From positions 1,674,001 to 1,738,000 of the forward strand of contig OZ024740.1 in the NCBI GenBank assembly GCA_964016885.1: a stretch of DNA of 64,000 nucleotides, written 5' to 3'. Positions 9,129-32,505 of this stretch are shown here, one piece after another (positions within the stretch are counted from its first letter, which is position 1; each line of letters starts with the position of its first letter). The position numbers were made by a program, and so were the translations under genes. This DNA is from Eledone cirrhosa (taxonomy: Eukaryota). The notes under the pieces were generated by a model that searched no databases, had not been told where the DNA came from, and worked only from the letters and a program-made list of their open reading frames with translations.

Positions 9129-9459
9129 TCATTTAGGTTTGTTGGTCATTCCGTATAGTCAACCGTGATGTAATATTAGGAAAAGCATTCAACGTAATCT
9201 TCAACTCAGCCATCTTCGTTTTTGTTGAATCTTGTTGGTGGTGCAAGAACAAAGTTAGTTATTATTGAGTAAAAAGACAGGAGGCTGGACTGGTGAAATT
9301 CCTTAAAGATTTATTACAAACACTGCACATTTCAATGACTGGGCTCTGATGATGTCACCGGGTTCCTACAGAGCCCTGTCATTGAAATGTGCATAGTGTT
9401 TGTAATAAATCTTTAAGGAATTTCACCAGTCCAGCCTCCTGTCATTTTACTCAATAATA
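9129..9459. mobile_element. (TA)n-flanked fold-back element A with hammerhead core
   Basis: Inverted arms 9260-9348 and 9369-9459, unique extension 9129-9259, TA runs on both sides. Confidence 0.8.
9346..9402 (+). ncRNA. Partial minimal type-I hammerhead ribozyme (5' strand of stem I missing)
   Basis: CTGATGA at 9346-9352, imperfect stem II, GAAA at 9384-9387, near-palindromic stem III ATGTGCAT, AUA triplet ending at 9395. Confidence 0.55.
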
Positions 9460-9747
9460 TATATATATATATATATATTATTGAGAATATTGTAGTGAAA
9501 TTGATGTATTCATATATATATATATATATATTTACCATTTTCGTGTAAGTTTTTTGCTTACTTTCCTATTTTTCTTGTATCTTTATATCTACACATGGTT
9601 CTGGATACATTGTGTCTGGGTAATATTAACCAATATCTACGCGCTGGCCTCTTCTTTTCACAACTGTTTTGTCATTGACCGATTGCCAGACAATATTATC
9701 AATATTTTGTGTATTGATCAAACTTATTCTTATATATACCATTATCT

Positions 9748-9892
9748 TCATCATCATCATTGCATCCGTTTTTCTACTCTTGCATGGGTTGGATGGATCC
9801 TTTTCAGCACAGCATCTCTCCACTTACTGCATTCCTATGTCATCTCCTCTGTGAGTCTCATCAACTTAAGATCAGCTCTCACCACCTCTGCC
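9748..9892 (-). mobile_element. RTE 3' stub (short-tail subfamily)
   Basis: Matches 20112-20275 (CAGCACAGCATCTCTC...TCAGCTCTCACCACCTC). (CAT)n tail. Confidence 0.8.
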
Positions 9893-9932
<40 letters not shown>

Positions 9933-10619
9933 CCAGTACAAAAATAGATATTTAATCAGTAACCTGAGGTGCACCCATGAGAGGAGATCGTCTGTGTGGA
10001 GTAGTCCAGAATGGGTAACTTTTCAAACTTAGTCGCTTTGATTAAACAAAACTGCACGGGGTGAATATTGACTCTGTAAGCCATCGCAAAGCAACCTGTC
10101 TAAGAGAGCAGTCACTCTAAATAAATAAGACTGCACAGAATAGACATGGATTCTGTAAGCTGTGGTGAATGGCAAAGCATCTAGGAGAGCAGATACTTTG
10201 AATAAAAATTAATACAAGTTAGAGAGGGCCCTTGCCTTTAAGTTTTGACAGACAATCTCTCACCTAACACTCTAACAACACTGTTATCTCACTACCACCT
10301 CCACCTAACACTCTAGTAACTCTGTTACCTCACCACCTTCATTCATTACTCACCTCTAAATACAGTGTTTTCTTTTAATTTCATTTAATTTTAACTTATC
10401 TGCACAACTTGGTTAGGGAAGAGAATGGGGTGGACTACACTAAAAGAATTTTTTTAAATGTTAACTCTTTGAATGCAAGTCTTGATTTTGGTATTTTAAT
10501 GCCCCAGGCCAGGATTACATGTTGATTCTTTTCATTTTTCAAAATAAAATGAAGAGTTATTTTGATCAAATTTACTTTATTTATGACATCTGGATGAATG
10601 CTTTACAAACTAAACTAAA

Positions 10620-11506
10620 ACATAGCAGTACATCTTTGGCACACAAGTTGCAGGAGCTAAAATATATACCAGTACATCTTTGGCACACATGTTGTAGGAG
10701 CTAAAATATATACCAGTACATCTTTGGCACACATGTAGGAGCTGAAAGATATAACAGTACATCTTTGGCACACATGTAGGAGCTGAAAGATATAACAGTA
10801 CATCTTTGGCACACATGTAGGAGCTGAAAGATATAACAGTACATCTTTGGCACACATGTAGGAGCTGAAATATATAACAGTACATCTTTGGCACACAAGT
10901 TGTAGGAGCTGAAAGATATACCAGTGTATATTTGGCACACATGTTGTAGGAGCTGAAAGATATACCAGTGCATCTTTGGCACACATGTAGGAGCTGAAAG
11001 ATATAACAGTACATCTTTGGCACACAAGTTGTAGGAGCTGAAAGATATACCAGTACATCTTTGGCACACAAGTTGTAGGAGCTGAAAGATATACCAGTAC
11101 ATCTTTGGCACACAAGTTGTAGGAGCTGAAAGATATACCAGTGTATATTTGGCACACAAGTTGTAGGAGCTGAAAGATATACCAGTGTATATTTGGCCCA
11201 CAAGTTGTAGGAGCTGAAAGATATACCAGTACATCTTTGGCACACAAGTTGTAGGAGCTAAAAGATATACCAGTGTATATTTGGCACACATGTTGTAGGA
11301 GCTGAAAGATATAGCAGTGTATATTTGGCACACATGTTGTAGGAGCTGAAAGATATACCAGTGTATATTTGGCACACATGTTGTAGGAGCTGAAAGATAT
11401 AGCAGTGTATATTTGGCACACATGTTGTAGGAGCTGAAAGATATACCAGTGTATATTTGGCACACATGTTGTAGGAGCTGAAAGATATAGCAGTGTATAT
11501 TTGGCA
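10620..11506. repeat. 44/41-bp minisatellite, ~21 units
   Basis: Unit CAGTACATCTTTGGCACACAAGTTGTAGGAGCTGAAAGATATAC, with a 3-bp-shorter variant. Confidence 0.95.
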
Positions 11507-12639
11507 CTCAGAGAGTCAAGAAGAATAAAACAAAAAGCCTAAAATGCGGACATGAATGATGTCTCTCGTGAAAGTAAAACTAGTAATTATTGTCCAGTTA
11601 GTTTTCATTAAGTTTAGTGAAATCTTAACTTTCTCTCTGGCTGTTTGACAACAGAAGTTGTTGTTTCTGGGTGTGGGTTTGTAAAGAGAAGACCTACACA
11701 TAAATTGGACAACAATGCACTGGGAACATTTCACAGTGACCAGTCACACTAATTAATCCAGGAAAATGGTCAGTGGAAAGGAGGAGAGGGTTGTTTTGTT
11801 GGTTTTTTTTCTCAATTTTTATGTTGATGATCAAATGGCGACATCATATATACAGGGGACTCTTCTGTGTAATCAAGGACATGCCAACTTCTTTAGGGGC
11901 TGGTGCCATGATAAAATACATGCAGGACATACTGTGAGCTGGTTGGCCATCACACAGTGACAGCAGAGAGTAGAGAAGATTCTTTAGTATAGTCAAAGAC
12001 ATGACAACTTCTCTAGGGTTGGTGCCATGATAAAATGCACTCAGCACATTCTGTAAAGTGGTTGACCATTACACAATGACAGCATTGAATGCTGGGGCCA
12101 AAACAAAATGTATCCAGTACACCCTGTAAAGTAGTTAGGAAAGACATGCACCATATAAATCAACATTTGGAACATACTAGCATTGTGTTATTTCCCAACC
12201 AATCTAGAAATTCAGTAATTCCAAATAAAATCTGACATTGATTGGAACGACTCACCCAAACTTTGTCAGACGTAAGATGATGATTATGTTCCTCTTGAAA
12301 CACACACACACATACATATGCACACATATACACATATACATGCACACATACATACTCACACACATAGACGCATACACACACATGCACACACTCACACACA
12401 CAAACAGACATATACACATATTCAATAATATCAATTATATCTGATTGATATCATAATCTTGTGAATTGAATGTCCTTTTGTTATTGATTTACTATTTAAA
12501 AAAAAATTATATTGCTGTGAATGGTATGGGGGTGGGGGCGTATAATCTATATTAAGAATACATAGTAATCTATATTGATTTTAGCAACATCAAATTGTTG
12601 TTCAGAACATGTCTAGTTTGATTAGACATTTTCATTAGC

Positions 12640-12674
12640 TCTGTCTCTCTACCTTTCTCTTTCTCTCTCTCTAC

Positions 12675-30996: not shown

Positions 30997-31097
30997 TATA
31001 TAGATATATATGTGTGTAATGTATATATATACACTCTAAATAGAAATGTGTCTATATGTAATGTATGTTTATATATAAATATATATATATATATATA

Positions 31098-31723
31098 CTA
31101 GCAGTGGTACCCTGCATTGCACAGGATAAGGTATTTTGGAACCCGGGCCACCAACAGACCTAATCGTGGAAAAACTGCATGCCTGGACAATATGTAAAGA
31201 AAATAAACCGAATACTCTGATGGCTGGATAATCTTTAAGATTTTCTTCGATGAAGCAGGAAAAATGTAGCTTTTCACTTAATACTGGCTCTAGGGGATCA
31301 AGAAAATGAATTTTTTTTATGTGCATAATAGACCTTGAAATTTCGGGAAAATCGGCTAGACGTAACGCCTAAAAAAGCCCTAAAAAGCTGAAATTTTTCA
31401 CCTAATGCGGGGCCTAGGCCATAAAAAAGTTGGATTTTCTTTGCTCACAGTATGACGAAGAGACTGACTAATACATAGTTACAATTTCAAGGAAATCAGT
31501 CTGAGGTAACGCCTCAAAAAAACCCTAAAAAGCTGGAAAAAACACAGTTATTCACCTAATGCGGGTCCTAGGGGATCAAAAAGTTGAATTTTTTTATGTG
31601 CATAACACTCCCTGAAACATAAGTAATACACATGTAAAGTTTAAAAAAGATCGGTTGGGTACTTCTCAGGTTTCACATACACACATACATCCTTCCTCAG
31701 TTTTATATATATACATATATAGA
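31098..31723 (-). mobile_element. Non-autonomous Helitron
   Basis: Minus strand begins TC (31723) after A and ends CTAG (31098) before T. Subterminal hairpin CCTGtgcaatgCAGG ~10 nt from the 3' end. Internal direct repeats (GTAACGCCT..AAAAAGCTG, TTCACCTAATGCGGG, CTAGGGGATCAA). No TSD. Confidence 0.78.
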
Positions 31724-32130
31724 TTAAAATAACAGATTAAAGTTTAAGCAAAGAATCGTTGCTTTCACCCTTAACGGGATCTTCTGAAACTAAAAACATC
31801 AATCTGTGAATGTAGAAGTAAATATTTCGAAAAATGTTGCAACCGAAGGAAGACAGGAAGACGATACTTTGGTTCGTGAAGACGTTTCCTGGCGATGAAC
31901 GGATAATAGCAAACAAAATACGTCATCAGAATGTTGTAATGCAGACAGCCAGGCATACAGACAGATATTATAAGGGCAACAGAAAACAGAAAATTGAAAA
32001 ATAAAAGCTGCAGTTAATATCTTTAGACCGCAAGGAATATATAAATGTAAGTTTGAAGTCAATTGGACTAGAAATGTGGATTTGTATAGACTTTGCAAAA
32101 ATGAGGACACACACACAACTACAGTTTTAT
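31724..32130. mobile_element. Unclassified CpG-rich, TA-associated interspersed element
   Basis: The first ~41 bp are nearly identical to 4338-4378. Bounded by TA tracts. Confidence 0.45.
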
Positions 32131-32184
32131 ATATATATATCTATATATATATACACACACACACACAACATCAGTTTTATATAT

Positions 32185-32237
32185 CATCATCATCATCACC
32201 GTTTTATGTCCGTTCTTCCACGCTTGCATGGGTTAGA
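32185..32237 (-). mobile_element. ~53-bp RTE 3' stub
   Basis: (CAT)nCACCGTTTTATGTCCGTTCTTCCACGCTTGCATGGGTTAGA matches the LINE terminus. Confidence 0.85.
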
Positions 32238-32317
32238 TAGATATATATGTGTGTAATGTATATATTTACACTCTAAATAGAAATGTGTCTATATGTAATG
32301 TATGTTTATATATATAT

Positions 32318-32505
32318 GGGTAAGTTATTCCGGGTTGAAGGTAACCACAGTAAGTAAGGTACTCAATACATACCAGAGTATAAAAGTTTTAATATAGATG
32401 AGATTCTACAGGACTAGAACTGTTTCATTCTTGAGAAATCATCAGGAATCTGATTCCTGTTGATTTCTCAAGAATGAAACAGTTCTAGTCCTGTAGAATC
32501 TCATC

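Follow-up and report, generated by a model that had tools for sequence, protein, structure and literature searches.

How Penelope-like retroelements (PLEs) find the point at which copying of their RNA starts, and why they insert head to head with a tail on one side only, has to our knowledge been open since these elements were described. A 64,000-nt stretch of the Eledone cirrhosa genome (assembly GCA_964016885.1, contig OZ024740.1, positions 1,674,001 to 1,738,000; the window, below) is rich in microsatellites and tandem arrays and raises this question through a set of short elements (A to F) that are 5'-truncated, mostly folded-back 3' stubs of Hydra-clade PLEs, a known form. Their tails carry a hairpin (hairpin 1) of the form R-C-T-C, variable stem, 2-nt 3' bulge and GAGY-RC, with a lower stem of 4 bp. 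Longer copies carry a second such hairpin (hairpin 2), and the pair likely positions the reverse transcriptase (RT) at two fixed, target-primed start sites on one RNA, the tail being the spacing between them.

The parent elements came into view through a tight pattern for the hairpins of families C and E, since four of its 30 loci continue beyond the tail into an open reading frame (ORF). Locus L061 is a complete insertion (pseudo-long terminal repeat [pLTR], ORF, pLTR and tail) with an ORF of 798 amino acids in which we read by eye an RT core (YRDD), a C-terminal nuclease-like region, the motifs RLRWI and SDKT, a CNC-x5-C linker and, at the C terminus, CNLC and CLH, with no CCHH visible by eye. 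Pfam returned no family for this ORF, and the domain names rest on likeness to published Hydra motifs. Full copies of family C encode it and families D and E lead into similar ORFs, also with RW and SDKT; no ORF was found for families A, B and F, in which only non-coding read-through was seen. The elements also show a hammerhead ribozyme in the pLTR, (TA)n insertion, partial tandems and inverted copies, which are Hydra-clade traits, and by ORF motifs and element anatomy we assign them to that clade. A protein search of the E. cirrhosa genome with the 798-residue ORF returned family C alone, and viral contigs held no relatives. Family C is a recent burst: its many copies have open frames of ~820 codons at 95-98% identity, some of them regularly spaced 3.7-3.9 kb apart, and such regularly spaced ORF copies, which resemble full tandems, could serve as templates. 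An alignment of the ORF with 26 relatives led to 94 loci from marine metagenomes and genome bins (67 families at <78% DNA identity), referred to here as the marine set. One named hit is from Argonauta, and Hydra elements have been reported in octopus. Its 46 ORFs of at least 600 amino acids contain DK[TS] in 44 cases, the CxCX5C linker in 41, RW in 29 and ADKG in one. Seventeen loci with Hydra-clade PLEs (L363-L379) lie in bacterial genome bins from marine hosts and are most likely animal DNA contamination.

The leader of these elements runs in the order hammerhead, UA patch, hairpin 1, UA patch, hairpin 2, ATG. In the marine set the hairpin has the form GCTC-stem-(TT, TC or TA)-GAGC-AC and occurs twice per leader: the first copy follows the hammerhead cut by 36-69 nt, and the second follows the first by 55-83 nt; hairpin 2 stands 13-40 nt before the ATG and precedes the start codon in 23/24 cases. 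The descriptor matched the marine sense strand 70 times, compared with 6 antisense and 7 reversed matches, and end anchors were present in 49 of the 73 regions downstream of hammerheads in the 94 loci, compared with 0.58 after shuffling, 5 in antisense and 0/66 upstream. The motif recurs in 36 element families from the marine metagenomes, with further closing swaps (TCTC/GAGA and GCAC/GTGC) seen by eye in a few loci, and stands at the corresponding places in published coral and sea-cucumber Hydra consensus sequences. In the E. cirrhosa genome, families C, E, B, A, F and one further family have hairpin 2 in their read-through copies, a few nucleotides past the tail end and 71-144 nt after hairpin 1. 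The closing pair in this genome is A-U in hairpin 1 and mostly G-C in hairpin 2. Searched across 3.0 Gb, the two-hairpin pattern gave 2,400 matches versus 554 in the control.

The structure of the hairpin is conserved through changes in its letters. The unbiased test for this was a set of 59 marine hairpins from the 36 families, selected by end anchors only and taken one per family and rank. With a 2-nt bulge, the first three inner pairs form in 58, 43 and 40 of the 59; at the first pair (C-G in 35, T-A in 22), bulges of 0, 1, 3 or 4 nt would leave only 1, 1, 7 and 23 hairpins paired. Watson-Crick counts for pairs 1-3 were 57, 40 and 36, compared with 30.6, 15.9 and 14.8 after permutation (p < 1e-4 for each). 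A reading made beforehand from the window's letters (the sequence-only reading) had held that the inner stem differs between elements but still pairs around a 2-nt bulge, and the strong covariation seen here agrees with it. The closing pair is G-C or A-U; inner lengths are 6-24 nt among the marine hairpins and reach 83 nt in E. cirrhosa. In a partly hand-picked alignment of 46 of the 59 marine hairpins and five window copies (one misaligned), 97.5% of cells were paired and the covariation score was 0.352 versus 0.136, a value reached in 0/500 shuffles.

The same motif is abundant in the genome. We estimate some 1.4x10^5 copies of hairpin 1; plus-strand matches in which the hairpin is followed by a TA run 40-70 nt later numbered 69,075 versus 1,095 in the reversed control (483,056 versus 5,682 when TA offsets are counted repeatedly), the tight C/E pattern gave 9,782 versus 0 and one hammerhead pattern 37,219 versus 43. 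The motif is thus no product of chance. An unbiased sample of 800 kb, taken at even steps, contained 63 matches to the hairpin descriptor and 9 to its reversal. Among the 49 hammerhead matches in this sample, 24 end within 80 nt, 18 have the motif (2 probably by chance) and 7, as called by script, continue without it; one of these ends at a variant site and another is interrupted, leaving about 5/49. Hairpin 1 is therefore not universal among hammerhead families. The motif-less run-on families (L247, L179, L153, L180, L261, L184 and L281) possibly belong to another PLE clade with a signal of its own, and in one of them a GC-rich stretch is conserved at about 110-140 nt past the cut. Rfam scans returned only microRNA-type and other sub-threshold matches in the window and 0 matches at E <= 1 in six marine loci; both scans missed the hammerheads too, so that their sensitivity is limited.

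The ends of the insertions are set relative to the two hairpins. Ends were mapped on read-through references, and because many loci entered the full set on account of their hairpin 1, the evenly spaced sample gives the fairer figure. The alignment covered 528 copies: 158 have their end at -12..+1 of hairpin 1 (site 1) and 220 at -12..+1 of hairpin 2 (site 2), while 66 read through, 43 end elsewhere and 41 lack a TA run; the corresponding numbers in the evenly spaced 800 kb (n=92) are 31, 38, 1, 11 and 11. Ends joined to TA thus fall within -12..+1 of the first base of a hairpin in 378/421 cases, and in 69/80 in the evenly spaced sample, compared with ~13% for random placement. The modes lie at -8 to -6, counted to the earliest possible junction, which places the junction with (TA)n some 5-9 nt 5' of one hairpin or the other. 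Marine repeats at the same locus behave alike: 11/13 stop short of a hairpin by 0-4 nt, two of them where the contig ends. Just upstream of the hairpins, an alternating T/A run of at least 4 occupies -10..-3 in 34/59 marine cases, compared with 6, 5, 4 and 3 in four control windows; this UA-alternating patch peaks at -8..-5 and, judged by its letters, can pair with a (TA)n 3' end.

The two ends of a palindrome are, in addition, coupled. With test windows of -18..+5 and arm starts within 400 nt, 138 head-to-head pairs comprised 106 with one end at site 1 and the other at site 2, one each of 1+1 and 2+2, 18 with a read-through arm and 12 ending elsewhere (18, 1, 0, 0 and 3 in the unbiased subset of 22 pairs). 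Where both ends lie at sites, 106/108 palindromes use one of each hairpin, as do 18/19 in the unbiased subset; independent choice would give about half. Complementary ends were also found in 6/6 ORF-bearing copies with a nearby inverted arm. Among 20 ORF-bearing copies, three gave no end call; of the other 17, seven have their end at site 2, and in none does hairpin 2 follow downstream. These data do not call for a circular RNA template. Because the signal for an end lies outside the part that is copied, the window stubs show hairpin 1 on their long arms only and hairpin 2 never.

Read against these families, the window copies (Table 1) required several corrections to the sequence-only reading. 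All five of its hairpin strings (in A to E) are present, that of C beginning at 20660 rather than 20661, and B, C, D and E fold as described, with the 4-bp lower stem, the 2-nt 3' bulge and an inner stem. A sixth copy, in element F (21111-21083), had been overlooked. The pairing proposed for A (ATTC-AAC...GTT) is rejected by 19 other family copies, in which the 3' arm, mostly CG-TC-GAGTGC, matches ACTC-YG ~60 nt upstream; hairpin 1 of A has a long inner region, and the window copy is decayed at two lower-stem positions. Its decayed 5' arm lies 4-5 nt past the short-arm end, and the 30 nt claimed earlier are specific to this copy. That all five elements carry hammerheads holds for C, D and E, which have the whole core; in A the core is whole but sits on the short arm and has lost its 5' stem I, and B keeps the GAAA half only. 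No usual CUGANGA box lies upstream of B half-cores (0/58), and longer B-family copies (L175, L177, L104 and L408) have a U3-A8 variant core with a long stem II. If E was meant to be among the palindromes, it does not belong there, being a 5'-truncated stub. The inner stem of D is weak in the window, where other family copies have TGC-TAT-GTA, and element F ends just short of the start of its family's hairpin 2.

Table 1. Positions of the PLE-derived elements and their RNA motifs in the window
Feature	Position	Strand	Remarks
Element A, fold-back stub of Hydra-type PLE family	9127..9459	-	long arm on minus strand
Element A arms	9260-9348 and 9369-9459		tail to about 9130
Element A minimal type I hammerhead core, on short arm	9346..9395	+	5' stem I lost at fold
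Element A hairpin 1 (family form)	9185..9255	-	5' arm 9255-9250, bulge 9192-9191, 3' arm 9190-9185
Element B, fold-back stub	13065..13253	+	arms 13065-13109 and 13125-13170, tail to about 13250
Element B hammerhead 3' half (GAAA, stem III, GUC cut triplet)	13128..13150	+	
Element B hairpin 1	13176..13201	+	5-8 nt past short-arm end
Element E whole minimal hammerhead	13629..13673	+	5'-truncated stub, non-palindromic, end about 13815-13822
Element E hairpin 1	13732..13754	+	
Element C, fold-back stub	20576..20989	-	arms 20659-20813 and 20832-20989, tail to about 20577
Element C hammerheads	20764-20710 and 20884-20938	- and +	
Element C hairpin 1	20633..20659	-	
Element F, piece of non-coding tandem unit	21005..21320	-	hairpin 1, no canonical hammerhead
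Element F hairpin 1	21083..21111	-	3-nt bulge in window copy
Element D, fold-back stub	32318..32510	-	arms 32392-32446 and 32456-32510, tail to about 32320
Element D hammerhead	32445-32407	-	
Element D hairpin 1	32359..32379	-	12-17 nt past short-arm end

Several families vary the theme. Family F (window 21005-21320; L191-L205) consists of a tandem unit that is non-coding; it has both hairpins, the inner region of the second measuring 70-80 nt, but of the ribozyme only a relic (CTGAAGA...GAAA). It is a candidate ribozyme-less passenger, and that it keeps the hairpin pair while lacking a canonical ribozyme agrees with the hairpins as the necessary signal. A GTTC/GAAC version of the hairpin occurs in hammerhead families (L011, L016, L019, L024, L216, L246, L436 and L452), some of them as ~520-nt tandem units; its 14 single hairpins have the same geometry, one being a weak stem inside an A-type tail, and genome-wide its two-hairpin pattern is at background (1,072 versus 1,815 in the control). 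Loci L389, L404 and L409 have two hairpins near 1500-1650 followed by a further 55-nt tail into TA, with no canonical hammerhead seen, which suggests three sites in this family. A 63-nt satellite on the window's contig (G000:C1:81256814-81259213) is built from hairpin 1 of family B and its flank.

These patterns fit a mechanism in which two protein units would bind the two hairpins while the endonuclease nicks both strands of the (TA)n target. Each freed 3' end would anneal to the UA patch beside one hairpin and be extended toward the RNA 5' end, and the two cDNAs (complementary DNAs) would join via short complementary stretches, giving a head-to-head insertion from a sense template. Only the arm begun at hairpin 2 would carry hairpin 1, the "tail", and hairpin 2 would not be copied at the outer end. 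What the sequences show is how the leader is built, that the inner stem covaries, that ends keep a set offset from the hairpins, where the patch lies and that the two ends are coupled; protein binding by the hairpins and their action at the RNA level are inferred. The earlier proposal of a cis-acting signal for RT recognition or placement of priming is supported by the enrichment, the covariation, the insertion ends at a fixed offset 5' of the hairpins (a distance that it had singled out) and the link to the PLE ORF, at least as far as sequence comparison reaches. It is amended in that there are two hairpins rather than one, the one that sets the long-arm end never being copied into stubs; in that the UA-rich patch at -8 to -5 belongs to the signal; and in that the motif is tied to the Hydra clade and not to hammerheads as such.

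A number of observations weigh against the proposed mechanism. Family D has a hairpin 2 reduced to a 4-bp GCAC/GTGC stem without a bulge, yet its ends cluster there, and its site 1 ends are split between -7 and -17. Strict anchors are missing from 24/73 marine regions (18/67 hammerhead-bearing regions aside); many of these end before hairpin 1, some have variants and some show nothing. Two long rearranged insertions (L068 and L069), picked for a hairpin at both ends, have tails at both ends. The permutation ignores relatedness, so that kinship among families inflates its p values, and RNAalifold on a MAFFT alignment recovered the 4-bp lower stem only. In the PLE PAc, discussed below, the reported starts share no homology with the DNA that is cut (PMC11167929, available text), in which they differ from the UA patch of the Hydra elements. 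By folding, sense RNA and cDNA are not told apart, with mean pair probabilities of 0.68 and 0.63, and an attempt to call the strand by wobble bias failed (G-U 14 versus A-C 9, p = 0.40). The hairpins are described here as predicted binding or start sites.

The main rival, which we consider unlikely, places the hairpins in DNA: as single-stranded cDNA or a cruciform they would be bound by the GIY-YIG endonuclease, which would cut the adjacent TA patch and thereby resolve, at two sites, an intermediate longer than one unit. Folding is as good for the cDNA strand as for the RNA, and the TA patch resembles a small target site; moreover, the main text of Craig 2021 (PMC8557442) ascribes the tail to endonuclease resolution, and in plasmid DNA the endonuclease of D. 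virilis depended on the tail (Pyatkov 2004, cited in the available text of PMC11167929). One cut intermediate would, however, poorly yield two antisense head-to-head arms, one per site, and the RT starts of a Poseidon PLE in vitro coincide with its genomic ends (PMC11167929, available text). Somewhat less probable still is that the hairpins are ribonucleoprotein-assembly or translational-operator sites, in which case primers annealing to AU-rich patches would suffice to set the ends and the nearness of hairpins would be secondary. The position of hairpin 2 ahead of the marine start codons and the use of other TA-like patches by some ends, as in family D at -17, speak for it, but the many other AT-alternating stretches of the leader are rarely used (43/421 TA-junction ends), the offset is fixed to the hairpin foot although the inner length varies from 6 to 83 nt, and non-coding families retain both hairpins. 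A role in translation may add to the main one. We regard it as very improbable that the hairpins direct RNA 3'-end formation, by cleavage or termination just 5' of each, followed by ordinary priming: this would likewise place ends at a fixed distance 5' of each hairpin, but an RNA cut at site 1 is without site 2, so that the strict pairing would need two differently cut RNAs per event, and internal starts were shown in another clade (PMC11167929, available text). Shared ancestry alone, with the motif a neutral remnant in related repeats, is favored by the tens of thousands of genomic copies that derive from a few young families, but is largely refuted by covariation, as flanks and loops are unalignable across families with proteins 31-39% identical and pairing and bulge are nevertheless kept.

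The proposed start sites have a precedent in another clade. For the Poseidon PLE PAc, the available text of Frangieh 2024 (PMC11167929) reports that RT begins in vitro at two internal RNA sites bounding the tail, that RNA 3' of the start sites is required, that both target strands are extended, that ribozyme cleavage is dispensable and that a dimer is predicted. As far as that text goes, PAc and the elements described here have in common two fixed genomic end sites with an extension on one end only, AT-rich targets and an upstream hammerhead; two start sites and a tail were thus already known for another clade. It describes, for one element, a single "AC-rich stem loop" that lies within the ORF, contains the RT start and has no target homology. 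The Hydra elements differ in that their bulged hairpin covaries and is duplicated, one standing 3' of each site within the 5' untranslated region; each end uses one site, and tails measure 55-144 nt. Their ends fall on a UA patch that matches the target and shows TA microhomology, and a G/C-closed hairpin follows 3' of it. The Hydra clade of C-terminal endonuclease-positive (EN+) PLEs was described by its ORF motifs, hammerheads, (TA)n targets, pLTRs and inverted 5'-truncated copies (Craig 2021, PMC8557442), all of which, going by its main text, the elements here share. The words "hairpin" and "stem-loop" do not occur in that main text. Of six new consensus sequences given there, three show the motif by eye (one with both hairpins), one a variant and two none visible; a search of the supplement with six exact 8-mers, aimed at a like motif in Naiad or Chlamys termini, gave 22 occurrences, of which by eye only the 4 in Hydra consensus sequences have the 5' arm, although line breaks may hide matches. 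Head-to-head inverted pLTRs, a tail on one side and palindromes at the junction are likewise shared with Adineta PLEs as presented in the available text of Arkhipova 2013 (PMC3846280); self-priming on an antisense template was invoked there, whereas twin priming at two hairpins would need sense RNA only. PLEs and metazoan retrozymes carry minimal type I hammerheads, and the ribozyme motif upstream of the hairpins here is shared with them, down to the U3-A8 variant and the palindromic stem III (PMC4209133, PMC7229834 and bioRxiv 10.64898/2026.07.22.740005, in the parts available). No downstream hairpin is described in the hammerhead and retrozyme literature as available, with 0 occurrences of "hairpin" and "stem-loop" in the accessible text of PMC4209133 and PMC7229834.

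Insertions nest in the window, C adjoining F (20576-21320), as elements do at L032, L047, L166 and L211, beside or inside one another's TA flanks; as they nest, each insertion keeps or extends the (TA) target. Matches to ACTC...GAGTAC at 41453-41468 and 4989-5009 lie inside two other dispersed repeats and are without the standard inner stem and bulge. A repeat resembling a short interspersed nuclear element is dispersed in both orientations (137-277, 8409-8549 and 40573-40701), and a weak tRNA-like match lies at 4065-4122. Long minisatellite arrays occupy 10640-11500, 15182-17150, 22005-26000, 33104 on, 47729 on and 53753-64000, with units of ~42, 21, 9-15, 23, 42 and 37 nt in the same order.

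Searches of the open literature, which took in neither papers behind subscription nor reports in Repbase nor the supplementary figures on PAc, gave no account of the hairpin pair or of coupled ends. Within a known element class, and as far as that literature goes, this is a new, putatively cis-acting RNA motif with a testable integration mechanism. PLE RTs are the sister group of telomerase, in which primer-alignment and template-anchoring elements, structured RNA beside a short primer-matching patch, set the RT start, although telomerase copies one short template repeatedly. Hepadnaviral epsilon primes from protein on its bulge, and in LINE-1 twin priming two primers on one RNA give inversions, the second priming site not being fixed. 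We treat all three as analogies to the hairpin pair rather than as systems to which it would belong. It is a possible, if doubtful, generalization that PLEs integrate by programmed twin priming, in which a ~150-nt duplicated hairpin-plus-primer-patch cassette loads two RTs per RNA, one per target strand; every PLE clade would then have its own pair, a counterpart of the template-positioning RNA of telomerase and a portable signal committing any RNA to (TA)n insertion. For the Hydra elements, the two-hairpin cassette, with its invariant 4-bp stem, 2-nt bulge and primer-matching patch, makes the start-site question directly testable. As a signature, the hairpin annotates some 10^5 short palindromes in the genome and flags non-coding passengers such as family F, and the pair would explain the preference for (TA)n, the inversions and the tail by a single mechanism.

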